Source of the DNA: a virus
Lineage: Duplodnaviria; Caudoviricetes
Reading direction: 5' to 3' (one strand)
DNA: 64,000 nucleotides
IMG/VR virus record: IMGVR_UViG_3300020450_001133
The position numbers were made by a program, and so were the translations under genes. The notes under the pieces were generated by a model, which saw only the letters and a program-made list of their open reading frames with translations, was not told the DNA's origin and did not search any database. Shown here piece by piece: positions 3,005 through 63,829 of this stretch. Position 1 is the stretch's first letter. Each line of letters opens with the position of its first letter.

Positions 3005-3697
3005 TTAAACGAATTGTTTTGTATTGCTAAGACTAGCAATTAAGTGTATTCTTTCCGTATCACTATAATTAGTAGCACAATGTATCTTACTTGTATTAAG
3101 TAAGTAACTGCTACCTGCTTTAAAGTGTGCAATTTCTAAAGGTATAATTTCCCCTTCATCTTTTGGTGTGCCGAAGTTATCGGGCCAATTAAGTAAAAAA
3201 CATCTACTATTTGTTACAACAGGAAAATGTAATCTCCAATCTAAAATTGCCCCACCACTATTAAGTGTTTGCATTAATGGACTGCCGTCCTTGTGTATGC
3301 TTAAAGTTGTTCTAGGAGGCAAAATACTAATACGCCATCTGTACACATCACTAAAACTTTTAACAAATTCTTCTAAATACAATCCTTGTATTTGTTTTAT
3401 AGGATGTATAAATTTAGTTTCATCTATCATTTCGTTTGAGTCATCGCCAATTTGTGTTGCAAGTACTCCTTGTTTACCTTGTGCTTCAGTTTTGTTTACA
3501 TAAGTTTTACCAGCAATACCGTCTGTCCATTCATCACTGTCTGGTTTAGAAGTTGTAATACAAATATTTCGGTATGCTAGAGCCTCATATTGCGTTCCTA
3601 CTGCTTGTTCTTTGATAGTATGATATACATGATTCACATCATTACGCAACTTCATGTAATCAAAGTCTACATTTATTTTTTTAAATACTTCTATCAT
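3005..3697 (-). CDS. 2OG-Fe(II) oxygenase, aspartyl/asparaginyl beta-hydroxylase-like
   Basis: RISILPPRTTLSIHKD (HxD), RLHFPVVTN, LNTSKIHCATN (distal His), ERIHLI (2OG-binding Arg). Confidence 0.75.
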   Translation of the reverse strand: MIEVFKKINVDFDYMKLRNDVNHVYHTIKEQAVGTQYEALAYRNICITTSKPDSDEWTDGIAGKTYVNKTEAQGKQGVLATQIGDDSNEMIDETKFIHPIKQIQGLYLEEFVKSFSDVYRWRISILPPRTTLSIHKDGSPLMQTLNSGGAILDWRLHFPVVTNSRCFLLNWPDNFGTPKDEGEIIPLEIAHFKAGSSYLLNTSKIHCATNYSDTERIHLIASLSNTKQFV

Positions 3698-4637
3698 TCT
3701 TTAATCCGCAAAAACTACAATTTTTATGTACTGGTGTATATACTATATATCCTCTTACCGGACAACGGTGTGCCCAAAATGAAGGACTTGGGACAGAATT
3801 ACTCACTAACTCCTCAGCCATAATCCCCCAAAACTTTCCTGCTTTTGGTCCTTTATTTTTCTTACCATCGCTTTCTCCTGGTATCTTTACCCACAAAAAA
3901 GCATCACATTTTTCTACTTTTGTATCACATGTTGGTTTAATACCTAATGCTCTGCCAGGTGGATTACACCATTCGTTGCCCAACGGACCATTACCATTTC
4001 TACTTGTATCAATAACAAAACAGTCATTAGGTCTATGCTCACATACTTTTAAACTCCATTCCATGGATTCATCTGTGCTTCTGTAGTTGCTTACATTTAC
4101 CGCAAATCCTCTTACTTTGTCGTTGTTTACAAAGTTTAAAAGTTCTGCCGCTTCTTTAGGACTTAACCAATTACTATGACCTATATCAGTGTAAATGTAT
4201 GCATCGCTTTCTTCTGTAAGTATTTCTAAACCTTCTTTGATTAAATTTAATCTAAAGTCAGCATCTTGTTTATCCATTTGTGTTGTATGAGGTAATGCAT
4301 CTGGTTCAAATATTATTATAGGTTTATGGCCCTTTATACCCTCACAGAACTCGTGTAAGAACAATAAGTATTCAGTTGCACCTTTGGCACCACCTTTACT
4401 GTAATGACCCATATCTCTATTGGGTAAATTGTATATCACAAAATAAGGTAAGTTTGGTGCAGTTCTTTTAAGGAATCTTTTAAGACTATGCTCTAGTTTC
4501 TTTATAGATTTACCTTTTTTAGAACCATACCAAAATGCTACTGGTTGTTCAAATATTTTACTAGATAAGGGAAAGTTTATTCTGTGGTCTTTGACTCTGT
4601 CAAAATCATTTACCCAGAAAGGATAATCAAGTGCCAT
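3681..4637 (-). CDS. Glycoside hydrolase family 6 (cellulase Cel6-like)
   Basis: VIYNLPNRD, IIFEPDAL (catalytic Asp), DIGHSNWL, RGFAVNVSNY, VIDTSRNGNG, WCNPPGRALG, DAFLWVKIPGESDG: the full series of GH6 motifs in order. Confidence 0.92.
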   Translation of the reverse strand: MALDYPFWVNDFDRVKDHRINFPLSSKIFEQPVAFWYGSKKGKSIKKLEHSLKRFLKRTAPNLPYFVIYNLPNRDMGHYSKGGAKGATEYLLFLHEFCEGIKGHKPIIIFEPDALPHTTQMDKQDADFRLNLIKEGLEILTEESDAYIYTDIGHSNWLSPKEAAELLNFVNNDKVRGFAVNVSNYRSTDESMEWSLKVCEHRPNDCFVIDTSRNGNGPLGNEWCNPPGRALGIKPTCDTKVEKCDAFLWVKIPGESDGKKNKGPKAGKFWGIMAEELVSNSVPSPSFWAHRCPVRGYIVYTPVHKNCSFCGLKNDRSI

Positions 4638-5178
4638 CTTGTATTTTTTGCAAGGCTAAATCTGTTTGCAGTATTTTAAACTGTTTATCACGTTTTTTAA
4701 TTGCACGTTTTAGTTTTAAATCACTTGCATATTCCAAATACAATTTGCCTTGTAAATGGTCAAATTCATGTTGGAAACACCTTGCATCCATTCCGTCTAA
4801 CCAATCTTCTACAACTTGTTGGTCATGTGTTTGAAATCTTACTTTTACTTTTGCAGGTCTTGTTACAATAAAATATAACAAAGGAAATGTTAAACAGCCT
4901 TCTTCCATGCCAACTGTTTCTTCACTGAACTCTAGTATTTCAGGATTATAAACTCCAATGTCTTCTCCTGTGGATAATGTCATAACAAACATTCTATACC
5001 CCATTCCTAATTGAGGTGATGCTAGTCCAATACCAAACTTATCTTTCATAAGTTGTATCATTTCATCTTGTCGCTTTTCCCAATCTACATCTTTTTCATC
5101 AAATGGATTTACACTTGCAACAGTATGTAAAGCAGGATTTTTTGGTTCTACTAATTCTATTTTAAATTCGTCTGACAT
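4627..5178 (-). CDS. def: Peptide deformylase
   Basis: GIGLASPQLG, EGCLTFP, QHEFDHLQG signature motifs. Confidence 0.95.
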   Translation of the reverse strand: MSDEFKIELVEPKNPALHTVASVNPFDEKDVDWEKRQDEMIQLMKDKFGIGLASPQLGMGYRMFVMTLSTGEDIGVYNPEILEFSEETVGMEEGCLTFPLLYFIVTRPAKVKVRFQTHDQQVVEDWLDGMDARCFQHEFDHLQGKLYLEYASDLKLKRAIKKRDKQFKILQTDLALQKIQDGT

Positions 5179-5659
5179 GTCTTAGTTCGTTTTTTGTTAT
5201 AAATTGTTTTAAAGTAAAGAACATTGTAGCAAAAATTAGTGTGCTAGTCAATAATCTTATATCAAAAGGTATTGCTAATGCGTATGTTTCTAGCAAAGTA
5301 ACAGTACCTAAACCGTTTAAATAAACTCCTAAATTTACAATTAAGTGCCATAAAACAACACTTAATACAGAGTTACCTAATACAGTTTGTAAGTTATCTT
5401 TATGTAAATACCTACTTAAAACACCTATTAAAAGCATTGTGCCGTACACAAACAACATAGTTGTACCATAAAAACCTAATACAATATCTGTTAAAAACAA
5501 TAAAGATACAGGTAAAAATAATTGTAAATTTTTGTTATTTGTTAAATGAGGCATGAATACAGCCATTGCAATTAGAGGAGTAAAGTTAGCAGGTAAAATA
5601 AATCGTGCTAATGCAATACACCCTAATAGCATACTTGCACTCTTGAGGAAGTCTTTCAT
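5162..5659 (-). CDS. DUF6580-like integral membrane protein (ECF S-component-like, putative vitamin/cobalamin transporter)
   Basis: About five hydrophobic helices; NFTPLIAMAVF, LFLTDIVLGFY, YALAIPFD..LLTSTLIF resemble this family. Confidence 0.7.
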   Translation of the reverse strand: MKDFLKSASMLLGCIALARFILPANFTPLIAMAVFMPHLTNNKNLQLFLPVSLLFLTDIVLGFYGTTMLFVYGTMLLIGVLSRYLHKDNLQTVLGNSVLSVVLWHLIVNLGVYLNGLGTVTLLETYALAIPFDIRLLTSTLIFATMFFTLKQFITKNELRHVRRI

Positions 5660-6750: not shown

Positions 6751-6779
6751 ATTATATGCAATTTAAGGGTGAATGTCAA
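6751..6779 (-). promoter_or_regulatory. Consensus sigma70-type (early) promoter with A-tract UP element
   Basis: TTGACA(6779-6774)-N17-TATAAT(6756-6751), preceded by AAAAAAAGTGAAAAAAAGG. Confidence 0.85.
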
Positions 6780-6886: not shown

Positions 6887-6962
6887 TGGAGCTCGGAAGA
6901 GGATTCGAACCTCCGACCTGAGGTTTACAAAACCCCTGCTCTACCAACTGAGCTATCCGAGC
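6887..6962 (-). tRNA. trnT: tRNA-Thr(TGT)
   Basis: Acceptor GCTCGGA/TCCGAGC; D-arm GCTC/GAGC; anticodon arm GGGGT-TTTGTAA-ACCTC; T-loop TTCGAAT; encoded CCA. Confidence 0.95.
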
Positions 6963-11714: not shown

Positions 11715-11983
11715 AAGAATATATTATTCATGTACATAACAGCACCCATAAATCCAAGTGCGGATATTTGAATAATCGTTGCAATTATTATAAACTTAAA
11801 TTGTCTGTCTCCCCACCATTTAAGTTCTGTTTCATACCAATCCTCGATTTGCTCTGGGGTAGCATCGGGTAGATTGGCAAATGTATTGTATATGACTTTT
11901 TCTTTTGGAGAATAGTTTGGAAGAGATTCTACATCTTTAAATATAGGTCTCTTCCAGGAATCATATCCAACTATTTTTTTCAT
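11711..11983 (-). CDS. Small membrane protein
   Basis: 90 aa with a C-terminal hydrophobic helix; coupled to the pseudoazurin gene. Confidence 0.6.
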   Translation of the reverse strand: MKKIVGYDSWKRPIFKDVESLPNYSPKEKVIYNTFANLPDATPEQIEDWYETELKWWGDRQFKFIIIATIIQISALGFMGAVMYMNNIFF

Positions 11984-12423
11984 TATAACTCTGACAAATA
12001 CTTGTCCAGTCTGTCTTTATTCATCACAAATGATTTACCGTATTGTCCTGCAAATCTTTTGGTTGCATCATCAACAGTTGCATTGCCAACTTTGATAACA
12101 CCTACCATTGCCATCATTTTATGAGGTGTACATTCATACACATAAACACCTTCAGTGTTTAATGTTACTGAAATGTCTTTGCTCATTGCACCTTTCCAAG
12201 GTGTTGCTCCTGCAGGAGTTAATACTGAAGCGGAGTTATGTGCCATATCCGTTGCTTCAAATTTAACTGTATCTCCGACATTTACAGATAATACAGCAGG
12301 TTCAAAAATCATCATGCCGCCTGCACCGTTGTTTAACATTTTTACTACATGCTCAGCCGCAAAGGTTGGAGCAGATAACATTAACATTAAGAATGCAGTT
12401 GCTATTTTGTGTGTGTTTTTCAT
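11983..12423 (-). CDS. Pseudoazurin-like type I copper protein with signal peptide
   Basis: Signal peptide ending TFA-AE; MIFEPAVLSVNVGDTVKF; Cu ligands in AHN and ECTPHKMMAM. Confidence 0.92.
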   Translation of the reverse strand: MKNTHKIATAFLMLMLSAPTFAAEHVVKMLNNGAGGMMIFEPAVLSVNVGDTVKFEATDMAHNSASVLTPAGATPWKGAMSKDISVTLNTEGVYVYECTPHKMMAMVGVIKVGNATVDDATKRFAGQYGKSFVMNKDRLDKYLSEL

Positions 12424-13589
12424 TTTATCTCCGGTAATGGATTTCTTGATCCAACTGCTTGTTCAATTGAATCGAATCCGTCTTTTTTAAGTAATTTAAC
12501 TAATCCTCTATTAATTTCATTAATGTTTTGAGGACCGTCAAATATCATTGTTGTAATCATGTGTAGTAAACTAGCACCAGATGTTATTTTCTCATAAGCA
12601 TCTTTGGCACTAAAAATACCACCAACGCCTATTATAGTTATCTTTCCTCTAGTTCTTCTGTACACATGTCTGATAACATTTGTAGAAATACGTTGTAATG
12701 GCAATCCACTCATTGCACCTTTACCTTTGGGTAGCAATCCTTTTTCAGTTGGATATTCCTCTGGTCTATGCTCTGAATTGTATTGTGGTTTTGCAAGGTT
12801 TGTACATACTACACCGTCCATGCCATGTTCAATACAACCATCTACAATGATGTCTATTTCATCTAATGTCATATCAGCCGCAAGTTTTACATAAATTGGT
12901 TTATCACTTATCGGTCTAATTTCTTCGTTTATCCTAGTTAATAATGCATCTAGGTTTTTCTTGTCTACAAATGGTTCACCGTCTTGCGTATTAGGACAAC
13001 TGATGTTTACATCATAGTAGTCACCAATATCTACAAACAGTTTCATTGTTTTCAAGTAATCGTTGATAGACATCTCTAGGTCAAACTCAGGTGTTAGGTT
13101 TGAATTAGCCGCATTGATACCAACACGAAGTCTTCCAAAATCTTCACCTGCTAATCTTTTAGATATTTTTTCTGATCCTTCGTTGTTTAGTCCATACCAT
13201 ACAACGATTGCTTTTGACTTAATCATTCTAAATAATCTTTTACCTGGATTACCTGGGCATATCTCACCTGTGAATGATCCTAGTTCAGCAAGTCCAAATC
13301 CAATTGACGGATATATTTTTGTTAATTCTCCGTCTTTATCAAATCCAGCAGAAAGACCTACAGGGTTTCTATAGTCTATACCGTCTACTGTGATTGCTAA
13401 ACTCTTGTCGTTGTAATCCATTAAAAGACTTGTTAGTCCTCTTGTTATTGGATTACTTCCTAACAACACACCCATACGTTTTAATGAATAGTGTGCTTGT
13501 TCTGGTTCCATTAAAAATATTAATGGTCTAATGGCTCTAAATCCTAACCATAGAATCTTATTTCTGATTCCTACTATAAAGTTTTTCAT
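12420..13589 (-). CDS. pyrD: Dihydroorotate dehydrogenase, class 2 (quinone-dependent)
   Basis: N-terminal membrane-anchor region, NPVGLSAGFDK, VNISCPNT, PIYVKL, CTN, GAMSG, GVGGI. Confidence 0.9.
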   Translation of the reverse strand: MKNFIVGIRNKILWLGFRAIRPLIFLMEPEQAHYSLKRMGVLLGSNPITRGLTSLLMDYNDKSLAITVDGIDYRNPVGLSAGFDKDGELTKIYPSIGFGLAELGSFTGEICPGNPGKRLFRMIKSKAIVVWYGLNNEGSEKISKRLAGEDFGRLRVGINAANSNLTPEFDLEMSINDYLKTMKLFVDIGDYYDVNISCPNTQDGEPFVDKKNLDALLTRINEEIRPISDKPIYVKLAADMTLDEIDIIVDGCIEHGMDGVVCTNLAKPQYNSEHRPEEYPTEKGLLPKGKGAMSGLPLQRISTNVIRHVYRRTRGKITIIGVGGIFSAKDAYEKITSGASLLHMITTMIFDGPQNINEINRGLVKLLKKDGFDSIEQAVGSRNPLPEIK

Positions 13590-13645
13590 ATGCTTCTCCT
13601 ATTTTAAGCAAGAAATTTTTTATTCCCTAATGGCGAATAAAAAGT

Positions 13646-13756
13646 TTAATATGTTAGCAAAAATGCCAACAACATTACCAAAGGTATCTCCCATGGTATA
13701 AAAACTATACCCAACAGCAGTGGGTATTGTTTTGCAAATGTCCAAATATGCCTCAT
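13646..13756 (-). CDS. Micro membrane protein (36 aa)
   Basis: MRHIWTFAKQYPLLLGIVFIPWEIPLVMLLAFLLTY; starts 2 nt after the preceding micro-ORF stop. Confidence 0.45.
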   Translation of the reverse strand: MRHIWTFAKQYPLLLGIVFIPWEIPLVMLLAFLLTY

Positions 13757-13758
13757 GC

Positions 13759-13842
13759 CTATTGAACAATTCCTAATACACTAATAACAAAAATTGATAC
13801 TAATGATATAACTTCAAATTTATCTCTAATGTCATCAGACAT
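13759..13842 (-). CDS. Micro membrane protein (27 aa)
   Basis: MSDDIRDKFEVISLVSIFVISVLGIVQ with a good AAGGAG SD. Confidence 0.5.
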   Translation of the reverse strand: MSDDIRDKFEVISLVSIFVISVLGIVQ

Positions 13843-13975
13843 CGCTACTCCTTCTGTGTATGTAATAAGCATGTTCTATATCACGTAAACTTCTCATAAT
13901 GCCTGCCATCGAGTCTCCTACCTGTACAGAGAACAGGAGACTAGCAAAAATTATAGAACGTTTCACTTGTATCAT
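13835..13975 (-). CDS. Micro protein (46 aa)
   Basis: MIQVKRSIIFASLLFSVQVGDSMAGIMRSLRDIEHAYYIHRRSSDV; its end overlaps the next start; contains an internal hairpin. Confidence 0.4.
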   Translation of the reverse strand: MIQVKRSIIFASLLFSVQVGDSMAGIMRSLRDIEHAYYIHRRSSDV

Positions 13976-14028
13976 TATAAGGGAGAATGATTATATAAAC
14001 AAAACTTATTGCCTATTATAGAAGGTAT

Positions 14029-14101
14029 TTATAATATATTATAAAAAAACTTATAAAAAACATGTTTTTTATAACTTTCAGTTTAAAACTTGTATAAGTT
14101 T
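14029..14101. repeat. Cluster of AT-rich palindromes
   Basis: Perfect 16-bp TTATAATATATTATAA (14029-14044), perfect 24-bp TTATAAAAAACATGTTTTTTATAA (14051-14074), and AAACTT-GTAT-AAGTTT (14086-14101). Confidence 0.7.
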
Positions 14102-15149
14102 ATAACGATTTTGTTATGCTGATATCGTTTAAATTGTTGCAATATTCAAAAGGACAAGTGTATTCTTCTTTGGGTAATTTTAATTCTTTAATTTGAGTGA
14201 TGTTTCCAAAACTTTTTGCACCGCACCAACTACTTAATATTTCTCCATGCATGTCTATATTAAGTCCTTCAGAACCTAAATGACATTTCATACCAGCAAA
14301 TTTGTTTAATCCTTCATTTATTATTTGATGACTTTGCACATACTTTACTGTTCCATCTTCATACTTAAATTCAGTTGACCAATACTTAGGATCGCTTTTT
14401 ACATGGCTAGGTGTATTATCTTCTATGGGTTGGGGTCTTGGTTTTACTCCAGGACGTTGCATTATTTCTATTTCTTCTGGTGCATAGTTATACCAAGTTT
14501 CTTGTGTATCGTAGTTATTATTATCGCCCAATAATTTTTTATACAATGTTTTTACGGCAATACTTACATCATACACACTTTGCCTATCATTGTTATTAAA
14601 TAACTCTCTTAATTCTTCGCCATAGTCGTATAATTCTTTAACTTGACCACTAACACCAGCAATACTTATATCTACCGTTACATGCCCTTTAAGAACGTCT
14701 ACAACCTCTTTAAAGTGTTGCTTATCCATTGTTAAAGGATGATATGTTAATACAACACCTTGTAAATAGTTTCTTGCTTCTTCCCACCATCTTACTGTTC
14801 TACTACCATTAGAATAAACTGTAACATTTGCTTTATAATCATATAGTCTTTGTAAAATTTCTTCAAAGTCAGGTATTGTTGTAACTTCGCCACCTATAAG
14901 TTCCCAATGCATAGCACGAACTTTTTCTTCACCATTATGTATATAAGTGTTATTTTTATAATACTCACATACTTTGTCTATAGTTTTAAGATATGTTTCT
15001 TTAGGCATCCAAGGATTAGTGCCATCATGTAGTACAGTAGGACAATAATCACAAGAGAAATTACAGGTATTACCCATGCTCCATTGAATATTAACTGGAT
15101 TATTTGGTGCGTGAAAATGTGGCCCTACAACCGATATGAGTTTACTCAT
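14100..15149 (-). CDS. Radical SAM protein with C-terminal Cys cluster (SPASM/twitch-like)
   Basis: CNFSCDYC (CxxxCxxC), GGEVT, YSNGSR, C-terminal CHLG..WCG..CPFEYCN. Confidence 0.9.
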   Translation of the reverse strand: MSKLISVVGPHFHAPNNPVNIQWSMGNTCNFSCDYCPTVLHDGTNPWMPKETYLKTIDKVCEYYKNNTYIHNGEEKVRAMHWELIGGEVTTIPDFEEILQRLYDYKANVTVYSNGSRTVRWWEEARNYLQGVVLTYHPLTMDKQHFKEVVDVLKGHVTVDISIAGVSGQVKELYDYGEELRELFNNNDRQSVYDVSIAVKTLYKKLLGDNNNYDTQETWYNYAPEEIEIMQRPGVKPRPQPIEDNTPSHVKSDPKYWSTEFKYEDGTVKYVQSHQIINEGLNKFAGMKCHLGSEGLNIDMHGEILSSWCGAKSFGNITQIKELKLPKEEYTCPFEYCNNLNDISITKSL

Positions 15150-15167
15150 ATCAATATTTATCGTATT

Positions 15168-16025
15168 TTAAGAACTTAATTTATCAATGATATCATTTAG
15201 AATGCGTTCAGTTGCCATTTGGTCATAAGACATTTTTGCATCTACTCTTTTCCATTCTGTATCTTCCCAAATTTTGCCTTTTTGTATCCAACTGTAAACT
15301 TGTTTTAATTCTGTTGGAATAGGGAACGGAGCATGATGATTAACTATAACATTTTCTGCAATTTCATCTGTGTACCCAGGCTTACAAAATCCGTGTACAC
15401 AATCAAAAAATTCTACATACTCGCTATTTGTTTCGTCAGCAAAGATTTTACTTTTTTCAGGACTAGTCCAAATATCCTCTGCACCATGATAGCACGTTAC
15501 GTCATATTCTTTTGCTTTGTAAAATGCATCTTCAAAGGGCCATAAGTTCCCATAACATAATGCAAAAAATGTTTCCTTAGGTAATATTTCGTTGTAATGT
15601 GCAATTACATTTGCAACTGTATCAGCACCCCAACTAAATCCAACAAATGCTAATTTTTTTAAATCAAGTCCTGCAAACATATTTCTATGATTCTCACATA
15701 AAAATTTATATGCTTCTACAGTTTCTAATGCTCTCATTTTAGGACTTACATATCCACTAAAGTCATTCCAGCCTATGGCTTCCATACTCCTTCCTGTAAA
15801 ACTATCTACACATAATGTTGCTATGCCTTGTTGCCCTAAACTATCAACAAATAAATCAGTATCACTACCTAATCCACCTGAACCATGACTTATAATACAC
15901 AATGGTTGGTCACCTGCAAACTTATCTGGTATTACTAATTGACATCCAATTCTAATTGGTGTATCGTCCCAAAAAATGTTTTTAGAACTTTGTACTTGAA
16001 ATAAAACTCTTTTTATGTTTTTCAT
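15168..16025 (-). CDS. Dienelactone hydrolase-family alpha/beta hydrolase
   Basis: IISHGSGG, VGFSWGA (nucleophile elbow GxSxG), HGAEDIW, HGF. Confidence 0.8.
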   Translation of the reverse strand: MKNIKRVLFQVQSSKNIFWDDTPIRIGCQLVIPDKFAGDQPLCIISHGSGGLGSDTDLFVDSLGQQGIATLCVDSFTGRSMEAIGWNDFSGYVSPKMRALETVEAYKFLCENHRNMFAGLDLKKLAFVGFSWGADTVANVIAHYNEILPKETFFALCYGNLWPFEDAFYKAKEYDVTCYHGAEDIWTSPEKSKIFADETNSEYVEFFDCVHGFCKPGYTDEIAENVIVNHHAPFPIPTELKQVYSWIQKGKIWEDTEWKRVDAKMSYDQMATERILNDIIDKLSS

Positions 16026-16627
16026 TTGTTTAACTCTTTAAATTTATCAAAATGCATTTTCCACACTACTTGTGGAACAGAATAAAATTCTGTAATACCT
16101 TCAGGCTCTGCAATACCTTTTTTAAGCCACCAATTTCTTTTTACATAGTCAGTAATAGTGTTACTACTTCTTACATAATTATCTGCATAGGCTTTGTTGG
16201 CTAATGTAGTTCCAAATGTTGCTTTAAAATTAGATTGTTTAGTTGCCCATTCACAATTAAAATATAGTAAGCCATCAAACTCAGGCATCTCTCCTCTGCC
16301 ATATCTTGTTGCTCTAGTCATTGGTATATCATTTTTAGGTATTCTACAAAGACGTGTCCATATTCTATAATATCCATCTTTGTATTCAGGCATATATTGT
16401 ACACCTGCTACTGCATAAATTTCATTTGTGGGTATATGGACCATGCAATGATATTGTATTTCATCTACTTTCATTGCTTCTGGTGATGAGTTATTTTCGT
16501 ATCCACAGTCTTTTGCAATACTGCAGAACTTTTCTAGTTGCGGTAACCATTTGTCGCTGTATTCTATACAGCCTATTTTTCCTTCAAAAAATGTTCTTAA
16601 GATTTCTTTATCGTTGATATCATCCAT
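16022..16627 (-). CDS. Hypothetical protein, possibly GNAT-fold
   Basis: EIYAVAGV...YYRIWTRLC beta-strand pattern resembles GNAT motif A; weak evidence. Confidence 0.4.
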   Translation of the reverse strand: MDDINDKEILRTFFEGKIGCIEYSDKWLPQLEKFCSIAKDCGYENNSSPEAMKVDEIQYHCMVHIPTNEIYAVAGVQYMPEYKDGYYRIWTRLCRIPKNDIPMTRATRYGRGEMPEFDGLLYFNCEWATKQSNFKATFGTTLANKAYADNYVRSSNTITDYVKRNWWLKKGIAEPEGITEFYSVPQVVWKMHFDKFKELNK

Positions 16628-17370
16628 CTGCCTACATCCATTTCATACCATTTAGTATTAAAGTTTAATCTTCTTGGTCTGTAATGATGATTGTTATGTA
16701 AACTTTCACCCCATGTAAATAATGCTAACCAAGGATTATTAGTACTTCTATTCTTCATTGGTGTTGTTTCGTATGTCAAACCTTTAATAGGTGTATGACC
16801 AAATACGTTTACAATACCACTTATAATTACACTTAGAAAACTTGCATTTAAACTAGCAAGTATATATCTTCCTTCAACACCCGGAATCCAAAAAGTTAGT
16901 AAACCTAAAAGTGCTAAATTTAATAATATTAAAAAGTGATAATTTTTATGACACCATAATGCAAACGGATCAAGTTGTTTTCTTATTTTAAACAACTCTG
17001 TTCTGGCAAATTCATGATTTGCTTTGTGGAATATCCAACCAAAAAATGCATAAAATAATCCTTTAGTTGGAGTGTGTACATCTCCTTCTTTGTCTGTGTG
17101 TGCATGATGACTTCTGTTGTGTAAAAGGCTCCATGTAATAGGAGAGCCTTGTGCTCCTTGACAACCTAAATATAGTAGTAATTTTCTTATAGGTTCCCAA
17201 GTTTTAAAACTGTTGTGACTATGTAATCTATGGAATCCAACACTTATACCGTATCCACTATAAAGGATAGTGAATAAAGCAGTTGCACAATATAATTGTA
17301 AACTGCCGTTGAACATACTCCATATTAAGGATAAAAATGCTACTGGTAAAAATATTAAATAAAATAACAT
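16597..17370 (-). CDS. Membrane fatty-acid (acyl-CoA delta-9-like) desaturase
   Basis: His boxes HRLHSH, HNRSHHAH, HNNHH plus transmembrane segments. Confidence 0.92.
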   Translation of the reverse strand: MLFYLIFLPVAFLSLIWSMFNGSLQLYCATALFTILYSGYGISVGFHRLHSHNSFKTWEPIRKLLLYLGCQGAQGSPITWSLLHNRSHHAHTDKEGDVHTPTKGLFYAFFGWIFHKANHEFARTELFKIRKQLDPFALWCHKNYHFLILLNLALLGLLTFWIPGVEGRYILASLNASFLSVIISGIVNVFGHTPIKGLTYETTPMKNRSTNNPWLALFTWGESLHNNHHYRPRRLNFNTKWYEMDVGRWMISTIKKS

Positions 17371-20988: not shown

Positions 20989-22089
20989 TTAGAGAGAAAA
21001 ACCTTTAAATGTATCGTTATCAACGTCTTGTTTTGTGCCGCCAATAACATAACTGCTTATTTCAGTCTCTTGTGGAGCAACTTGAACACTACCGCCTGTA
21101 ATCCATGCTTGGGTCCAAGGTAAAGGATTTGTTCCTGTGTTAAAAGGTGTTTCTAATTGTACTGCTCTCATTCTTTTACCTGCAATATATTCTATATATT
21201 GCTTTAACAGTTCTGCATTTAGTCCTATAATACTACCGTCTTTAAACAAATAATCTGCCCAGGCTTTTTCTTGCTCAACTGCATCCATAAACATACCAAT
21301 AGATTCTTCTTTTAATTCTTTTGCTATCTTTACATAGTCTTTATCATCTTTAGGCAGAAGTTTTAGCATTTGTTGTGTACTTGCTAAATGAACGTTTTCA
21401 TCTCTAGCAATTAGTTTGATAATTTTAGCATTACCTTCCATTTTTTTAAGTTCAGCAAATGCCCAACTACAAGCAAATGAAACATAAAAACGTACACCTT
21501 CTAATATGTTTACACTCATTAAACATCTGTACAATGCTTTTTTATGTTCGTATTCATTGTAACTTTGTAAGCCACGTTCTCTTGCTTGGTTTTGTTCGAT
21601 TAATTTGTCATAGTTTTCTGTAATTGCATCTGAGCAATCTGTTATTTCTTTAATGCTTAACATTTCATCAAATACTTTACTTGGATCTGGGTACACATTT
21701 CTTATTATGTGCGTATAACTTCTACTGTGAATAGTTTCTGAGAATGCCCAAGTTTCAATCCATGTTTCTAATTCAGGAACACTAACAACAGGCAACAATG
21801 CTAAATTAGGTGAACGACCTTGTACACTATCTAATAGTATTTGTCTTTTTAGATTGCTTGTAAAAATATGTTGTTCAAAGTCAGTTAGTTCTTTAAAGTC
21901 TTTTGCGTCTTTTAAAATATCAACTTCTTCAGGTCTCCAAAAGAAACCAAGTTGCTTTTCAGTTAATTTTTCAAACTGCTTATATTTAACAACATCAAAT
22001 CTTTGTACACCTGGCCCGCCACCAGAGTCCAAAAACATTTTTGCTTTTGTATGATGTGTTTTATTTTTTGCATCAAAAACTGAACTCAT
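20989..22089 (-). CDS. nrdB: Ribonucleotide reductase class Ia beta subunit
   Basis: FFWRPEEV, LDSVQGR, SETIHSRSYTH, LEGVRFY, IARDENVH, VAPQETEISSY. Confidence 0.97.
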   Translation of the reverse strand: MSSVFDAKNKTHHTKAKMFLDSGGGPGVQRFDVVKYKQFEKLTEKQLGFFWRPEEVDILKDAKDFKELTDFEQHIFTSNLKRQILLDSVQGRSPNLALLPVVSVPELETWIETWAFSETIHSRSYTHIIRNVYPDPSKVFDEMLSIKEITDCSDAITENYDKLIEQNQARERGLQSYNEYEHKKALYRCLMSVNILEGVRFYVSFACSWAFAELKKMEGNAKIIKLIARDENVHLASTQQMLKLLPKDDKDYVKIAKELKEESIGMFMDAVEQEKAWADYLFKDGSIIGLNAELLKQYIEYIAGKRMRAVQLETPFNTGTNPLPWTQAWITGGSVQVAPQETEISSYVIGGTKQDVDNDTFKGFSL

Positions 22090-24395
22090 TATATTTTACA
22101 ACTCTCGCAATCATCATCTTCTAGTAATGGTGAAACATTACCAGACTCTATAAACTGCACTTGGGCAGTTTCTTCTTTGTTAATATCTATCTCACCTTGT
22201 CCATCGTGAGTATTATTATAGTATAATTGTTTACCACCATATTTATAAAACATTACTAGGTGTTGTAACAACATACTCATAGGCACTTTCTCATCTTCGA
22301 AGTGCTCTGGATTGTATGATGTATTTACCGAAATACCCTGGTCAATGTACTTTTGAAGAATGGACATTATCTTCAAATACCCTTCAGGTGACTTCTGTTC
22401 CCAAAGTAAATCATACTTGTTTTTCAATCTTGGAAAACCTGGTACTACTTGTTTTAACACACCATGTTTGCTTTGCTTAATACTAACATAACTTCTTGGT
22501 GGTTCAATACCATTTGTACTGTTACTAATCTGTGCTGATGTTTCTGCAGGCATCAATGCCATTAACGTACTATTTCTAATACCAGTTTCTTTAAGTTGTT
22601 TTCTTAAACTTTTCCAGTCAGCACGTTCTTGATGTTTTACTAATTCATCAACATCTTTCTTGTATGTCTGATTAGGAGTAATACCCAAACTGTATTTAGT
22701 CTCATCGGACTTAGGACATGCTCCTTTTTCAACTGCCAAGTCTGCACTTGCTTTAATTAAGTAATAACTCCATGCTTCAGTCCAAGTATCTACCATTTCC
22801 AAATTTGGTTCTTGGTATGTGCTATCATTTTTTGCCATCCAATATGCAAAGTTTATGATACCAATTCCTAATGGGCGTCTATTCATTGTGCTAACTCTTG
22901 CCGCTTCAATAGGATATTCTTGGTAGTCCAGAAGTTCATCTAATGCTCTAACAGCCAAATCGCAAACTTTTTCCATTTGCTCTAAACTTTTAATGGCACC
23001 CCAATTAACCGCACTCAAAGTACATAGGCTAATTTCGCCATTAGGGTCATCTATATTTGTTAAAGGTTTAGTTGGCAAATCAATTTCACAACATAAATTA
23101 CTTTGTTTGATTGGGGCAACATCTTCAATGAAAGAACCATGTGTATTAGCATGGTCCACATTTTGTAGATAAATTCTACCTGTGTCTTTTCTTTCTTGAA
23201 CAAAGTTGCTGAAAAGTTCTACTGCTGGTATTGATTTTTTCCTAATGCTAGTTTTTCTTTCTGCCGCTTCATAAACTTCTTTAAACTTATCTTGGTCAGT
23301 AAAGAAAGCATCATAAACTTCTGGTACATCATTAGGGGAGAATAATGTAATATTACCACCTTCAATTAATCTTTCATACATCAATTTGTTAAACTGTACA
23401 CCATAGTCCATATGACGTACTCTGTTATCTTCTGTTCCTTTATTATTCTTTAACACTAGCATATCTTCAATTTCTAAATGCCAAATAGGATAATAAAGTG
23501 TAGCCGCTCCGCCTCTTACACCACCTTGACTGCAAGACTTAACTGCTGATTGAAATAATTTATAGAAGGGGATAACGCCTGTATGTGTTGCATCTCCACT
23601 CCTAATCTTAGAACCAATTGCTCTAATTCTTCCTGCTCCAATTCCAATACCTGCTTTCTGCGATACATATTTAACAATACTGCTACTTGTTGCATTAATA
23701 CTGTCCAAACTATCATCTGTTTCAATAAGTACGCAACTACTAAATTGTCTTTGTGGTGTTCTAACACCTGCCATTACAGGTGTAGGCAAACTAATTAAAA
23801 ACTTACTAATTGCATCATAGTAGTCTTTAATATATTTCATTCTTTTTTCAACAGGATATTTTGCAAACAATGTTGCGGCAATCATCATATATGCAACTTG
23901 TGGTGTTTCAAATATTTCACCTGTTGCTCTATTTTGTACTAGATACTTTCCACGGAACTGTTCCATAGCCGCATAAGTAAGATATTCATCTCTGCTATGG
24001 TCTATATAACTTTGTAATTCATTAATATCATCTTTAGTAAACAACTCTACAAATTCAGGGTCATAAAATCCTGCATCAATATTGTCTTGAACAATATCAC
24101 ATAAGCAAGGTGGTGTAAATGTATTATATACTTGCTTACGCAAATGATAGTTAATTAATCTACCTGCTACATATTGATAGTTTGGTGTTTCTTCTGATAT
24201 AAGGTCTGCGGCACTTTTAATAAGTGTTTCTTGAATGTCTTCTGTTTTAATTGAATCAAAGAATTGAATTTGTGAATTTATCTCTACTTGTGAAGCACTT
24301 ACACCAGTAATGTCCTCACAAGCATACATAACGACTTTATGCAATTTATCAATGTTTAAATCTTCTAGTCGTCCGTCCCTTTTCTGTACCTGCAT
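22089..24395 (-). CDS. nrdA: Ribonucleotide reductase class Ia alpha subunit with ATP-cone
   Basis: Likely start MQVQKRDG (24395); PTPVMAG, FSSCVL, QSNLCCEI, CTLSA, MPAETS, LYY, C-terminal CESC. Confidence 0.97.
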   Translation of the reverse strand: MQVQKRDGRLEDLNIDKLHKVVMYACEDITGVSASQVEINSQIQFFDSIKTEDIQETLIKSAADLISEETPNYQYVAGRLINYHLRKQVYNTFTPPCLCDIVQDNIDAGFYDPEFVELFTKDDINELQSYIDHSRDEYLTYAAMEQFRGKYLVQNRATGEIFETPQVAYMMIAATLFAKYPVEKRMKYIKDYYDAISKFLISLPTPVMAGVRTPQRQFSSCVLIETDDSLDSINATSSSIVKYVSQKAGIGIGAGRIRAIGSKIRSGDATHTGVIPFYKLFQSAVKSCSQGGVRGGAATLYYPIWHLEIEDMLVLKNNKGTEDNRVRHMDYGVQFNKLMYERLIEGGNITLFSPNDVPEVYDAFFTDQDKFKEVYEAAERKTSIRKKSIPAVELFSNFVQERKDTGRIYLQNVDHANTHGSFIEDVAPIKQSNLCCEIDLPTKPLTNIDDPNGEISLCTLSAVNWGAIKSLEQMEKVCDLAVRALDELLDYQEYPIEAARVSTMNRRPLGIGIINFAYWMAKNDSTYQEPNLEMVDTWTEAWSYYLIKASADLAVEKGACPKSDETKYSLGITPNQTYKKDVDELVKHQERADWKSLRKQLKETGIRNSTLMALMPAETSAQISNSTNGIEPPRSYVSIKQSKHGVLKQVVPGFPRLKNKYDLLWEQKSPEGYLKIMSILQKYIDQGISVNTSYNPEHFEDEKVPMSMLLQHLVMFYKYGGKQLYYNNTHDGQGEIDINKEETAQVQFIESGNVSPLLEDDDCESCKI

Positions 24396-24464
24396 GTGTT
24401 TTCCGTATTTGTATCTATGTTTTAGTTTAAGTATCATTATACAACAGAATGTTGAATAAGTCAA

Positions 24465-24899: not shown

Positions 24900-27563
24900 T
24901 TAGGATTTCCATCTTCTAACAATGTATTTCATTACTACATTACTTGTAGCAGGTTGAATACTATTATTTGCAGTAATGTTTACAGTATTAGAACCTGGTG
25001 CCATACTAGCATTAAATTGTATATTTCCTGATACAGTAGTAACATTACCACTTACGTTAGAAGTATCTGCGATTTCAGATGATATATCTTGTATAGTAAC
25101 TGCTCCATTGGATTGTATATTACCACCACCTGCATCAAATCTATCTGCATTTTGATTACCAATGTAACTTAATGTACCAACTCTATTATAAAACAATGTA
25201 ATATTTGAATCATTAGGATCCAAAGTTTGTCCTGTTAATGAATAGTCTACAAATACTGTATCATAAACACTTGTATCTGTGCCTAATGCTGTTAATAGAA
25301 CATTACTGTTAGAACCAATTGTTAATTGCTGTGGTTGTGTAAATGTTGTTACAGCCTGACCTGCTTCTTGTGAAGCAGTTGTTAAGAGTTCGATATTTGT
25401 TTTTATTGTAGCAAGTCCTCTTTTATCTGGATTTGAGGACCTAAAATAAAGTTTGTTTACTAGTTCTGCAAAGTTACCTGCTTCATCACTGCTTGTAAAA
25501 TCAATCTCTGCATTTGTTGTATCTAATGAAATACCAAAACTGTTAAAAGTTTCTGTTCCATAAACATCATTAATATATGCATTTGTAATAATGTTTACTT
25601 TTTCATCAGCAAGAACACGTTTTAACCAAGTTTCTAATTTAGCCTTAACTGTATGACTTGCTCTTGTATAATAACCTGGTAAAATACCCATAGCATTCCA
25701 AGTATTTGTATCTGCTTGTGGGTCGTCAAACAATCTATATTGCGATTGGTCATTACTGTAAATGTATGCTTCATCATTTACATCTGGTTTAAGACTCATC
25801 CTAATCCATTGTTGTTTACTATTAATCTCGCCAATTGCACCACTTAATGTGCTTTTACCTGACAAGTCTAACATATAACCTGCTGTTACTGTAAGTCCGT
25901 CTGCTTCTACAATATTACTTAATACAGGACTTAAATTACCTGTTACATTAGCCGTTACCGCAGAACTAACTGGAATAAAGAATGCATTTTGTGATGGTGT
26001 ACCTTGTACATCAGTAGATGTACTTGCACTTATACCACCTACAGCAGTATCAAATGTTACATTTGTTGTTCCTGGTACTCCATGACTTGCACTAAAAATT
26101 TGTACATTAGCACCAGTATTATCTGTACCATAGTTTATGTAATCTAAATCACTGTTAATTGCAACTGTTACACTTGGTTCTGTGACTGTAAAGTTACCTG
26201 TTCCAACTGATTGAACTTGATAAATGTTATCAGTATCATTAAATTGCGTATTGTTGCTACCTATAAATCTAACAAAATCATTTGTTGTTAATCCATCAAC
26301 ATTACCTGTTACTGTGACTGTACCACTTGCCGCTACACCTGTTGTAACTGCTCTTGATGTTTGGAAAGCATTTGCTGGAACATCAATTGTAAAACTTGTT
26401 CCTGTGCTATTTGCTTTTACAGGTAATAGTTTTCTGTGTAGATAGTGTGGAGTATTTACAACTGAAAAACTACCACCTTTTGCTTTACCTTCAAACCACA
26501 CATAACTATTGTATCCTGTAGAGTAATCTATATTTGCAGTATCATATTTTGTTAATACTAATGAGTCAGCACCCATATCAACTGTAATTTCTCCTGATGC
26601 CACTGTGGCATTTGCTGAAATACCAGCATATACATTTCCTGAAGAAGCATCAACTGAGAATAAACTTGGATCTTGACTGTCTTTTACTGCAACAACTTTT
26701 CCTAATGAAACATTTGCTACATTGGCAACACCTTGCCCTTCTGCAACAACATCAATATGTTTTGTTTCTAATCCAATAAATCCAGTACCAACTTGTTCGT
26801 TTACTACAACATATTCTGAATTTAGATATCTATAACTTGGTATAGACATATTTGCATGGAAGCCTGTAACTGCGGCTCCACTGGCAATAACTGTATTTGC
26901 TATTGTATGGTTTACATGTGAATTACCGTAATATGTAACTGCTATATCTTGTGAATTTGTAGGTGCTGTTCTAAAGAAAATATTGTGGTCACTATTTGCA
27001 TTACTACCTGTTATAAAGTTGTAATCAAAAGATGTATTTACTGTTGCACCTGTACCACTGCTATCACCTTTTTGTTTAACACCATCTATTAAAACTGTAA
27101 CATCATCAGCATCAAAGGCTACACCAGTTTGATTATGTTTGATAAAGTCATTTCCTGAAACAACTGGATCAAACACATCTCTATTAATAGTATTTCCACT
27201 TCCATCTACAATACCTGCATTTACTGTAATATTTGTATTAGCAGTCCAAGATTGGCTTTTGCTAACACCGTCAAATGTTGCAGAACCTTTTGGAAATCTA
27301 ATATGAGGAACTGTAAATTTTACAATTTGATTATTTGCTAATGATAATGCTCTTGCTTGAGCACCTAATGTATTTTCTAAATATACTGATTTATTAAAAG
27401 TTTTACTAATGCTATCGTCTGTATCAGCACCAATATATACTTGTCTGCTGTCAGTAGCAAATCCAATTTCACCAGGACGCAAAGGTTGAGGTAAATCTTG
27501 TTTCAAACCTCGCCTTTGCTGTATTCTACTAATTATTACTTTTAAATTTGCTTCATCTGACAT
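24900..27563 (-). CDS. Virion structural protein (tail fibre/baseplate-associated-like)
   Basis: N-terminal RIQQRRG..LPQPLRPGEIGFATDSRQVYIG resembles phage fibre anchor modules; T/S/N/G/V-rich beta body. Confidence 0.65.
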   Translation of the reverse strand: MSDEANLKVIISRIQQRRGLKQDLPQPLRPGEIGFATDSRQVYIGADTDDSISKTFNKSVYLENTLGAQARALSLANNQIVKFTVPHIRFPKGSATFDGVSKSQSWTANTNITVNAGIVDGSGNTINRDVFDPVVSGNDFIKHNQTGVAFDADDVTVLIDGVKQKGDSSGTGATVNTSFDYNFITGSNANSDHNIFFRTAPTNSQDIAVTYYGNSHVNHTIANTVIASGAAVTGFHANMSIPSYRYLNSEYVVVNEQVGTGFIGLETKHIDVVAEGQGVANVANVSLGKVVAVKDSQDPSLFSVDASSGNVYAGISANATVASGEITVDMGADSLVLTKYDTANIDYSTGYNSYVWFEGKAKGGSFSVVNTPHYLHRKLLPVKANSTGTSFTIDVPANAFQTSRAVTTGVAASGTVTVTGNVDGLTTNDFVRFIGSNNTQFNDTDNIYQVQSVGTGNFTVTEPSVTVAINSDLDYINYGTDNTGANVQIFSASHGVPGTTNVTFDTAVGGISASTSTDVQGTPSQNAFFIPVSSAVTANVTGNLSPVLSNIVEADGLTVTAGYMLDLSGKSTLSGAIGEINSKQQWIRMSLKPDVNDEAYIYSNDQSQYRLFDDPQADTNTWNAMGILPGYYTRASHTVKAKLETWLKRVLADEKVNIITNAYINDVYGTETFNSFGISLDTTNAEIDFTSSDEAGNFAELVNKLYFRSSNPDKRGLATIKTNIELLTTASQEAGQAVTTFTQPQQLTIGSNSNVLLTALGTDTSVYDTVFVDYSLTGQTLDPNDSNITLFYNRVGTLSYIGNQNADRFDAGGGNIQSNGAVTIQDISSEIADTSNVSGNVTTVSGNIQFNASMAPGSNTVNITANNSIQPATSNVVMKYIVRRWKS

Positions 27564-57765: not shown

Positions 57766-58229
57766 TTCTTAAATATTTCCTTTATTCTTTTGTCGTCTAT
57801 ACCAAAGTCTTTTGCCATTTGTTTAAGGTCATCATCACTGTTTATACTTAACAACAAGTCAATTTCATCTTGTTTCAAATGTGGCAAAATTTCATTTATA
57901 AAGTCTACTCTTTTGCTTTTCTTTTTTCTAGCATTTGGCGGCTTTATGTAAGGGTGATGTTGCACTTTACCACTACCAGCCGCTGTCATTAATAACCATT
58001 GCAACTCTGGGTGTTTACTAACATCACTAAACTTGTGATTAATTAATTCATTTACCATCCATATATAGTCAGGTGCTTGTGCGCCTTGCACACTACTTGC
58101 ATACCTCATCATCATCCAAGGACTGAATGCTTTCTTTTGTTCAGCAGTTAATTTATTATACCAGTTACGATCCTTTTTGTCTATGGCTTTCATAACTTCT
58201 GCTAAAGGTAATTGAGCCTTTCTAGCCAT
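57762..58229 (-). CDS. Putative clamp-loader small subunit (T4 gp62-like)
   Basis: FSPWMMMRY..NELIN..HPELQWLL pattern in a replication context; moderate resemblance only. Confidence 0.5.
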   Translation of the reverse strand: MARKAQLPLAEVMKAIDKKDRNWYNKLTAEQKKAFSPWMMMRYASSVQGAQAPDYIWMVNELINHKFSDVSKHPELQWLLMTAAGSGKVQHHPYIKPPNARKKKSKRVDFINEILPHLKQDEIDLLLSINSDDDLKQMAKDFGIDDKRIKEIFKK

Positions 58230-62006: not shown

Positions 62007-62036
62007 ATTATACTACCATTTCCTTTGAATTGTCAA
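62007..62036 (-). promoter_or_regulatory. sigma70-type promoter embedded in the last codons of the TonB receptor gene
   Basis: TTGACA-N18-TATAAT, then 5 nt, then the uvsW ATG. Confidence 0.6.
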
Positions 62037-63728
62037 CATAATTTGTCTTCCACGATTGTTATAACCTGGAAGTACTTCTACTTCTTCATCTAAGATGTTG
62101 TCTATTGTTAATGCTAAGTCAACATCATTAGCAAAAGTTTTAATGTATCTAAAAGACAAGTTTTGCAAGTCCTCTAATTCTGCTCCGTCATATGGACCAG
62201 GTATTCTTTCAAAATTACCTCTATAGGTAATATCAAATTCATGACTACCAAAGGCTTGATTCCATTTAACAACACCAACATACTTAGGCACTCTTGCTTG
62301 TTCTGTATCTGTATATTTCAGTGTAAGCATAAAGTTACCAAACCATTGCGAGTATCTAATACCTAGTGTGTCGTATGCACCAGTATTGTAATACTTTGCA
62401 TTGTAGTATTCTGTTGTGGTTGTTGTAATTGCATTACCATCTTCATCATAAGTTACAGTTGTAACATCATTACTTCCACCTGGTGCATATTCTATTGCTT
62501 CTTCAAAGTCATATTTGAAAATACTTAACACACCAAATCCTATTTCGTAACCAACACCTTCTTCAGGCAATAAGTCTAGATTTGCATCAACCCAACTATC
62601 ACCATGTAATTCATAAAGTGTAGGTCTTCTATAACTGTTACCAACATTTAAAAAGAATGGACCACTTTCTAAACCAAATCTTAATGCGTTTTGGTCTTCA
62701 TTTCCAACTCTAAAACCAAAGTTGTATTTCATGGCAAAGTCGGCATTAATATTTAAGTATGCACCGTAATTGTCTCTGCTATGTTCTTCATTGTTTAGAC
62801 TTTGATACTTCTCATGACTTGCGTCTACACCATATGCGATTTGCAATTTGTTAGATAGGTTAGTTTGGTCACCAACTCTCAAATAGTCTGTGCTACTTTC
62901 GTTAGCATATGACATCCATTCGCCTGTGTAATAATCTGCTTTGTCATGTGTTCTACCCAATGTAAAATATTCATTGTTTAATGCAATATTATATTTTTCA
63001 CCATCTTGTTCACAATTATTAGACTGATTAAAACTAGAATCATAACAGTTGTCATAATCATAACTGTAATCAGTGTAGTCCATTGTTATCCTAAAATCTT
63101 GTACATCAAAATTTAACTTTGCGTTTCTATTTGTGTACCAGTCACTTTCAGTATTATCATTTCTTACACTATCTTGGTTTATTTCCATTGCAGTATATTG
63201 AAACCATTTTGCAGGTGCAACACTAACCATTTTATGATCCTGTGAACCTAAGATTGCAGTAACACCTTGTTCAATGTTATCTTTAATCAATATAGTACCA
63301 GCAATACTACCACTACCATACACAACACTATTAGCACCAGAAATAATTTTAACTTCTTGCCCTGTTGCTAGTTCATTACCAAAATCATACCATGCACTAC
63401 CAGGCAAGTTTGCTGGTATGCCGTTTTTGTAAACAGCGGTATGTACATTTTGTGCACCACGTTCGTTATATCCTTGGAAAGCACCATAACCACCAGCAGT
63501 CCATGTATGACCGGGTAGTAATGCTCTTATAAAGGAATTACCTTTTAGTGGGTCTGCTTTTATAGTTGTGCTTTGTTGTCCCACTACCACAACTTCTTCT
63601 ATCTCCTCTGCCTGTGCTTTTGGACTTAAACATACTGCTACTGAGAACAATATCATCCATACAAAAGCCGCATACATAGGAGAAAAATTGATATGGAAGT
63701 TCCAATCAATCTTACTTCTATTACTCAT
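62013..63728 (-). CDS. TonB-dependent outer-membrane receptor, BtuB-like
   Basis: Signal peptide ending AQA, TonB box EEVVVVG, plug ERGA..GANSVVYGSGSIAG, C-terminal PGYNNRGR..W. Confidence 0.85.
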   Translation of the reverse strand: MSNRSKIDWNFHINFSPMYAAFVWMILFSVAVCLSPKAQAEEIEEVVVVGQQSTTIKADPLKGNSFIRALLPGHTWTAGGYGAFQGYNERGAQNVHTAVYKNGIPANLPGSAWYDFGNELATGQEVKIISGANSVVYGSGSIAGTILIKDNIEQGVTAILGSQDHKMVSVAPAKWFQYTAMEINQDSVRNDNTESDWYTNRNAKLNFDVQDFRITMDYTDYSYDYDNCYDSSFNQSNNCEQDGEKYNIALNNEYFTLGRTHDKADYYTGEWMSYANESSTDYLRVGDQTNLSNKLQIAYGVDASHEKYQSLNNEEHSRDNYGAYLNINADFAMKYNFGFRVGNEDQNALRFGLESGPFFLNVGNSYRRPTLYELHGDSWVDANLDLLPEEGVGYEIGFGVLSIFKYDFEEAIEYAPGGSNDVTTVTYDEDGNAITTTTTEYYNAKYYNTGAYDTLGIRYSQWFGNFMLTLKYTDTEQARVPKYVGVVKWNQAFGSHEFDITYRGNFERIPGPYDGAELEDLQNLSFRYIKTFANDVDLALTIDNILDEEVEVLPGYNNRGRQIMLTIQRKW

Positions 63729-63757
63729 TCTGTCTCCAGGTTATTAGTTCTATTATA

Positions 63758-63785
63758 ATTATACGTCTTATTGTGGAAAAGTCAA
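63758..63785 (-). promoter_or_regulatory. sigma70-type promoter of the TonB receptor gene
   Basis: TTGACT-N16-TATAAT with a second TATAAT in tandem. Confidence 0.65.
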
Positions 63786-63796
63786 GTTAAAAATGT

Positions 63797-63829
63797 AATA
63801 AAGTGACGCCCGGAAGAACTCCGGGCGTC
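63797..63829 (-). terminator. GC-rich hairpin, probable intrinsic terminator
   Basis: Perfect 10-bp stem GACGCCCGGA/TCCGGGCGTC, followed on the minus strand by an interrupted T-tract (ACTTTATT). Confidence 0.7.

Follow-up and report, generated by a model that had tools for sequence, protein, structure and literature searches.

Introduction

Few marine microbes produce vitamin B12, and it is limiting for many others. The closest described systems to the one considered here are the outer-membrane receptors BtuB of Escherichia coli (PDB 1NQE-1NQH, 2GSK) and BtuB1-3 of Bacteroides thetaiotaomicron (8BLW, 8BMX, 8P98); the inner-membrane protein BtuM of Thiobacillus denitrificans (PDB 6FFV, 8C7P, 8OVV); and operons of Bacteroidota in which a cobalamin riboswitch controls a receptor together with a protein of the family DUF6580. 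BtuB binds two calcium ions through a cage of five aspartates close to the B12 site, and its loops L2-L5 are key for high-affinity binding (PMC7360065), and the hallmark of BtuM is an invariant cysteine (Cys80 in BtuM_Td) that acts as cobalt ligand (PMC6072759). Here we analyze 64,000 nucleotides of an uncultured marine jumbo T4-like phage (IMG/VR record IMGVR_UViG_3300020450_001133; this whole stretch is hereafter the window), for which an initial annotation had proposed a two-membrane route of B12 uptake made up of a BtuB-like receptor and a DUF6580-like protein. Profile and model comparisons show that the phage encodes a predicted outer-membrane receptor of BtuB type as well as a DUF6580 protein resembling an inner-membrane S-component of energy-coupling factor (ECF) transporters. 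As judged by these comparisons, the virus probably helps infected cells to obtain scarce vitamin B12, and we favor, with moderate confidence, a two-membrane corrinoid route in which the receptor would be the conserved part and DUF6580 an optional one. We found no report of a phage-encoded btuB, nor any mention of DUF6580 in the full-text literature searched.

A BtuB-type receptor carried by phages

The receptor gene lies at 62013..63728 on the minus strand, at the very coordinates given in the initial annotation, and is intact, encoding a 571-residue precursor with a predicted mature form of about 531 residues. That it is a TonB-dependent receptor is evident from the Plug domain of Pfam (28.3 bits against a cut-off of 23.9) and from an AlphaFold2 model (predicted local distance difference test score, pLDDT, 85.8; predicted template modelling score 0.82) with the plug-in-barrel build of a TonB-dependent transporter, in keeping with the 22-stranded barrel of BtuB-type receptors; the Pfam barrel model PF00593 gave no match. 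Single-sequence searches of NCBIfam, PHROGs and PDB sequences were also without a match, and the receptor stayed below every cut-off of the curated BtuB models (TIGR01779, PRK10641). A profile built from 32 members of the receptor family, run against PDB sequences, recovered E. coli BtuB with E 1.4e-19 over nearly the whole protein (profile 47-529 on BtuB 45-593), whereas all other solved receptors, including the colicin I receptor, those for heme, PQQ and copper, and Bacteroides BtuB, appeared with E values of at least 2.6e-3 and through the plug only. The structure comparison agreed: in VIA-align the 15 top structures for the receptor model were B12 receptors (Z 32.7-37.8), comprising E. coli BtuB (Z 33.8-37.8; root-mean-square deviation, rmsd, 2.4-2.9 A over 463-505 residues) and three B12 receptors of B. 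thetaiotaomicron (Z 32.7-34.4), with receptors for all other substrates at Z 31.0 or below. Foldseek was concordant by TM-score, with a weaker separation of receptor classes. The ancestry of the receptor among B12 receptors is thus well supported. The initial annotation had named clustering with siderophore or glycan receptors as the outcome that would speak against its reading; no such clustering was seen, B12 receptors leading the profile and the structure rankings alike.

Searching 1.8 billion cluster representatives exhaustively with the receptor yielded 223 matches at E <= 1e-3 and 26 at E <= 1e-30. Full-length members of the family comprise 490-660 residues, and beyond them follow ordinary receptors of 600-700 residues, mostly matched through the plug; for 10 of 10 nearest ordinary receptors tested, the top NCBIfam match was TIGR01779, the TonB-dependent B12 receptor. 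Metagenomes contain numerous homologues of both the receptor and the DUF6580 protein, their contigs reaching 250-330 kb, and neither protein had a tblastn match among GenBank phage records. As for distant members of the receptor family, one (P0247) resides on a phage contig, adjoining a terminase and a RecA-like gene, and another (P0244) on a 2.6-kb fragment with no informative neighbours. Among 185,579 prokaryote species, each represented by one genome, there was no true member of the family; the 13 matches obtained were at the level of the plug only, and came from Cyclobacteriaceae, Flammeovirgaceae and Salinivirgaceae. A cobalamin riboswitch stands directly 5' of the receptor gene in 12 of these 13 cellular look-alike loci, the thirteenth being cut by the contig end. 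By its sequence relationships, then, the receptor is a member of a divergent family found only on phage-like contigs.

In common with E. coli BtuB and the Bacteroides receptors, the phage receptor displays a plug in a beta-barrel, a TonB box, a signal peptide and a terminal aromatic residue. The signal peptide consists of a hydrophobic stretch at residues 18-35 followed by an AQA cleavage motif; the TonB-box-like EEVVVVG covers residues 44-50, corresponding to a family-conserved I-E-E-V-x-V-V-G with an invariant V48; and the C-terminal residue is tryptophan, most family members ending in an aromatic residue as well. It differs from BtuB in being phage-encoded, in its identity of about 18-19%, and in its size, being about 60 residues shorter (mature form against 594 residues in BtuB), with loops shortened in the profile alignment. 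In addition, it has invariant motifs of its own, namely N192-x-E194-x-D196 and Y221-x-Y223-D224-Y225-D226-N227-C228, together with a nearly invariant C239. In the strand order of the AlphaFold2 model, the loop joining strands 3 and 4 (extracellular loop 2) holds E194 and D196, while D224 and D226 lie where strand 5 gives way to loop 3, which leads to strand 6; the profile alignment places E194 on D179 of BtuB. Loops 2 and 3 form the calcium cage of BtuB. The positions of these acidic residues in alignment and model are suggestive of a correspondence with that cage.

Both genes are intact and, by their substitution patterns, under purifying selection, yet faster-evolving than their neighbours. 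For the receptor, the ratio of nonsynonymous to synonymous substitution rates (dN/dS) was 0.06-0.19 vs. 0.02-0.08 for the neighbouring helicase, and the receptor evolves two to three times faster than its neighbour; for DUF6580 it was 0.19-0.33 vs. 0.12-0.19 for the neighbouring deformylase.

Two observations on the receptor family may be added here. The n-region of the signal peptide, N-F-H-I-N-F-S-P (63650-63728, receptor residues 1-26), is kept even in homologues of about 50% identity. Signal peptides are not usually so well conserved, and an RNA element or a role in targeting may lie behind it. Some homologues attain 650-700 residues (P0241, L034-L045 and G212:C1:52685-54673) by way of large insertions at two places in the barrel part, a pattern consistent with variable extracellular loops.

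A DUF6580 protein with the fold of an S-component

The second gene, at 5162..5659 on the minus strand, encodes a protein of 165 residues, and the initial annotation was correct both in its coordinates and in naming it DUF6580-like: PF20221 matches residues 9-155 (model positions 12-156 of 162) with E 2.7e-24 and 86.7 bits, against a cut-off of 27. The AlphaFold2 model (pLDDT 87.5) comprises six helices, and in VIA-align its 15 top matches were all S-components, with Z from 10.8 to 14.1 before a drop to Z 8.8; joint best were 4huq_S (Z 14.1) and BtuM 8ovv_A (Z 14.1; rmsd 2.7 A over 154 residues). The earlier description of an S-component-like inner-membrane protein is therefore borne out at the level of fold. 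Other searches were silent: Foldseek returned nothing at E <= 0.001 for the model, single-sequence searches of NCBIfam and PHROGs gave no match, and no PDB chain, BtuM included, was matched at E <= 10 by the sequence itself or by the profile of its family. We also considered a reading of the protein as MreD and rejected it, given that the Pfam match is to DUF6580 and that MreD scored Z 8.8, below the range of the S-components. The nearest protein-atlas clusters are DUF6580 proteins from viruses and Pseudomonadota.

Like BtuM, the phage protein is a small six-helix membrane protein with the ECF S-component fold, members of its family occur alongside BtuB-type receptors, and the window open reading frames (ORFs) scanned include no gene for an ECF module. 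Unlike BtuM, to which it has no detectable sequence similarity, it lacks the cobalt-ligating cysteine, and its phage clade is marked by invariant R19, D58, W104-H105, N109 and D133. Based on the model, we regard the DUF6580 protein as a candidate solitary corrinoid importer.

A B12 role for DUF6580 is plausible by analogy, the evidence for it coming from gene context in other genomes. We sampled 201 Bacteroidota genomes, found PF20221 in 91 of them, and looked for riboswitches at 40 of their DUF6580 loci, 20 being top-ranked and 20 further ones chosen for a short gene form; a same-strand cobalamin riboswitch was located within 5 kb upstream of DUF6580 in 17 of the 40. Among the top-ranked loci, none of the 20 had such a riboswitch within 1.5 kb of the gene, and four had one on the same strand 2.2-2.5 kb upstream. 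Neighbours were scanned in two of these four, with L087 and L088 showing a TonB-dependent receptor gene directly upstream of DUF6580, between it and the riboswitch. Among the short-form loci, 13 of 20 had a same-strand riboswitch upstream, in three cases about 100 nt before the DUF6580 start. In a Cyclobacteriaceae metagenome-assembled genome (L086 / L066), the order is DUF4430, DUF6580, cobalamin riboswitch and TonB-dependent receptor; DUF4430 we take to be a B12-binding domain of Bacteroides surface proteins.

A second Bacteroidota subfamily forms a well-supported clade of proteins of about 178 residues with Asn in place of Gly at column 62 and no cobalamin riboswitch upstream. It is made up of L089, L093, L105 and 13 further loci; neighbours were scanned in L089 and L105, where DUF6580 sits between YceI and DUF4956 genes. 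As judged by sequence and context, this riboswitch-free subfamily probably has a different substrate or role. Columns 33, 62, 64 and 68 separate the two subfamilies, and the phage proteins, which form one clade (Shimodaira-Hasegawa-like approximate likelihood ratio test, SH-aLRT, 99) including that of contig L052, carry the riboswitch-type residues at these columns. The phage protein thus resembles the products of the riboswitch-controlled operons in its PF20221 domain, in its size (about 160-167 residues in this class) and at these four columns; it differs from them in its identity of 25-33%, in a phage-clade signature of P37, W104-H105, D133 and T140, and in that its gene in the window is neither beside a receptor nor accompanied by a riboswitch.

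Promoters and probable early expression

Upstream of the receptor gene we read from the sequence a sigma70-type promoter (TTGACT, 16-nt spacer, TATAAT; 63758..63785, minus strand), and a ribosome-binding site GGAGA at 63733-63737. A terminator-like GC-rich hairpin with a T-rich tail, also read from the sequence (63797..63829, minus strand), would end the transcript of the upstream ATPase gene, and hence the receptor gene would be a transcription unit of its own. Both promoter hexamers are kept in 22 of 32 related phage loci, the spacer being variable, and in that comparison the T4-type late motif TATAAATA was not present 5' of the receptor gene. No Rfam family, riboswitches included, was detected in the window other than two tRNAs. 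With a sigma70-type promoter and no cobalamin riboswitch, the B12-responsive control of the cellular receptors seems to have been replaced by expression that, on promoter sequence, looks unconditional and early; this constitutive-looking promoter is a further departure from BtuB.

For the DUF6580 gene, a perfect sigma70 promoter (TTGACA, 17 nt, TATAAT; 12/12 consensus match) is found at 6751..6779 on the minus strand. It is likely the start of an operon of three small ORFs, DUF6580, peptide deformylase and a glycosyl hydrolase of family 6 (GH6), with no terminator-like site predicted between 7400 and 3600. DUF6580 starts 1 nt past the upstream stop and shares its last 17 nt with the beginning of the deformylase gene. 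Since consensus sigma70 promoters precede both the receptor and the DUF6580 operon, both genes are probably early. The family 6 glycosyl hydrolase (3681-4637; cellulase-type, E 1.9e-49) follows the deformylase in this operon, an order kept in related phages.

The proposed route, its weaknesses and its rivals

In the route that we propose, host RNA polymerase would transcribe the receptor and DUF6580 early from their sigma70-type promoters, and the signal peptide would export the receptor for insertion into the host outer membrane. There it would bind a corrinoid, either vitamin B12 or a relative, and deliver it to the periplasm via the host TonB-ExbBD; given that neither TonB, ExbB nor ExbD was found among the window ORFs scanned, and TonB_C in none of five related contigs, the receptor would depend on the host TonB system. 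DUF6580, acting as a solitary S-component in the manner of BtuM, would then move the corrinoid across the inner membrane, and in phages that lack DUF6580 this step would fall to the inner-membrane B12 transporter of the host.

The vitamin would most likely feed B12-dependent radical S-adenosylmethionine (SAM) enzymes of the phage and/or host enzymes of the MetH type, an assignment of the consumer that we offer as conjecture. The initial annotation had suggested host methionine/SAM supply; B12-binding radical SAM enzymes in related phages are a possible alternative. In two relatives that carry the receptor, G211 and G212, a B12-binding domain is predicted together with a radical SAM domain in proteins of 616 and 633 residues. 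The sole radical SAM protein of the window scan (14100-15149) has no B12 domain, and PF02310 was not found in five related contigs (17-26% complete). Downstream of the receptor-helicase block, at 58222-59323, the window has an MtnN-like nucleosidase (PNP_UDP_1) and an adenine phosphoribosyltransferase, and in the phage contig L054 the same two genes are 1-2 kb from DUF6580. From their annotation, these enzymes could salvage by-products of SAM or radical SAM chemistry, which fits such a theme and is no proof of it.

How far the receptor and DUF6580 belong together can be judged from related loci. In two T4-like phage contigs (L052 and L053, with gp6 and gp25 baseplate genes and tRNAs) a DUF6580 gene is followed directly by a receptor, and that receptor, searched as a single sequence, matches BtuB with E 1.7e-26, the next receptor being at 4.9e-7. 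A glutamine riboswitch occurs in L053 at 6912-6960, a few hundred bases from this pair and the tRNA cluster. In 72 of the 78 related loci that could be tested, the gene next upstream of the helicase is the receptor; DUF6580 stands before the deformylase in 4 of 29 deformylase loci at >= 51% identity, and is within 10 kb of the receptor in none of 46 related viral loci. In one contig, G001, the gene order follows that of the window from the receptor through the deformylase/GH6 region, yet DUF6580 is missing. From these comparisons, the receptor is a conserved, near-core element of the lineage, and DUF6580 a patchy, occasional add-on whose pairing with it is facultative. The co-occurrence across related phages that the initial annotation had put forward as a check shows no fixed pair in this lineage, four related contigs having the receptor only. 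Of the two-membrane B12 route that it proposed, the BtuB-type receptor and the S-component fold have held up, and cobalamin riboswitches and BtuB-type receptors accompany members of the DUF6580 family, which makes the route plausible and partly supported; the two genes are, however, no conserved pair in this lineage.

Several findings weigh against a two-membrane corrinoid route. In the window, 56 kb separate the two genes, which belong to different operons. Only half of the 8 closest deformylase loci have DUF6580, and none of the more distant ones does; the gene is also missing from the receptor-bearing relatives G001, G211, G212 and G214, so that the receptor functions, or at any rate persists, where the phage has no DUF6580 of its own. 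Among about 45 window ORFs scanned against Pfam there was no B12-dependent enzyme, nor any TonB, ExbB or ExbD. In Pfam the receptor matches the Plug only, and it matches no NCBIfam model at E <= 0.01. No invariant or near-invariant cysteine is seen in 34 phage-type DUF6580 sequences, the cysteine that defines BtuM being absent. With its YceI/DUF4956-context subfamily devoid of riboswitches, the DUF6580 family is not uniformly linked to B12, and the DUF6580 tree, composed of phage and Bacteroidota sequences only, provides neither a placement of the phage proteins inside the B12-linked cellular subfamily nor a donor group.

These findings leave room for an account, unlikely in our judgement, in which B12 uptake involves only the receptor, handing over to a host inner-membrane transporter, and DUF6580 is unrelated, serving another small molecule or a membrane role. 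The disparity between the receptor in its helicase loci and DUF6580 in its deformylase loci favors it, as do the four relatives that have the one without the other and the DUF6580 subfamily that has no B12 context; moreover, S-components for thiamine, folate, biotin and riboflavin come close to BtuM in score, the fold by itself being no guide to substrate. Such an account has difficulty, however, with the cobalamin riboswitch link in 17 of 40 Bacteroidota loci and with L052/L053, where a DUF6580 of the same clade as that of the window adjoins a BtuB-like receptor. A receptor of BtuB descent might, on the other hand, have come to serve a different substrate, be it another tetrapyrrole, a metal complex or another nutrient. 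In favor of this are an identity to E. coli BtuB of less than one fifth, no NCBIfam match, trimmed extracellular loops (about 531 vs. 594 residues in the mature form), invariant motifs of its own that include two cysteines absent from BtuB, a rate of evolution two to three times that of its neighbour and no riboswitch control. Against it, B12 receptors of two phyla rank first in every comparison, the nearest cellular look-alikes are under B12 riboswitches, and loop 2 has the invariant acidic residues E194 and D196, with D224 and D226, invariant as well, where loop 3 begins, loops 2-5 being key for B12 binding (PMC7360065). We regard a change of substrate as unlikely.

BtuB is a common receptor for phages and colicins. 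This makes it conceivable, though improbable in our view, that the phage receptor remodels the cell surface, e.g. by serving as a decoy for, or a block to, superinfecting phages or colicin-like toxins that exploit receptors of the BtuB type. The early expression suggested by its promoter, its fast evolution relative to neighbours, as in a surface arms race, and the large variable insertions of some homologues would all suit such a function. A passive decoy, however, would have no need for the TonB box and plug that are kept across the family; in addition, dN/dS is well under 1, and phages with such receptors, related and unrelated alike, repeatedly carry DUF6580 and B12-dependent enzymes.

Returning to the two-membrane corrinoid route, we venture a broader and more tentative proposal, which we consider somewhat more doubtful than not: a marine jumbo T4-like lineage would keep, among its early and near-core genes, a minimised, phage-only BtuB, to which DUF6580, from an undescribed family of solitary inner-membrane B12 importers, would be added in some members, and infection would thereby rewire B12 uptake for phage radical SAM chemistry. 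If true, a viral B12 receptor, with a second-step importer in some strains, would represent a new auxiliary metabolic function, directed at cofactor acquisition and not at central metabolism. The naturally minimised BtuB could also provide a handle on the minimal needs of a TonB-dependent B12 transporter, and in the many bacteria that possess BtuB and lack BtuCDF, DUF6580 would be a candidate for the inner-membrane B12 transporter that is missing there.

Genomic setting

The window is collinear with IMG/VR viral contigs of 62-270 kb, estimated to be 17-76% complete, and has a GC content of 34%. Its genes include a ribonucleotide reductase, a DnaB-like helicase, a UvsW-like helicase, ThyX, peptide deformylase and the two tRNAs. 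The large subunit of the ribonucleotide reductase, at 22089-24464, is NrdA-type, in keeping with the class Ia enzyme reported in the initial annotation. A run of metabolic genes at 11983-17370 comprises a plastocyanin/azurin-like copper protein, a dihydroorotate dehydrogenase, the 349-residue radical SAM protein mentioned above and a fatty acid desaturase. Finally, a protein of 887 residues encoded at 24900-27563 begins with the N-terminal domain of a major tropism determinant (Mtd_N, E 8.4e-7) and, going by this domain, may have a diversity-generating or receptor-binding role.

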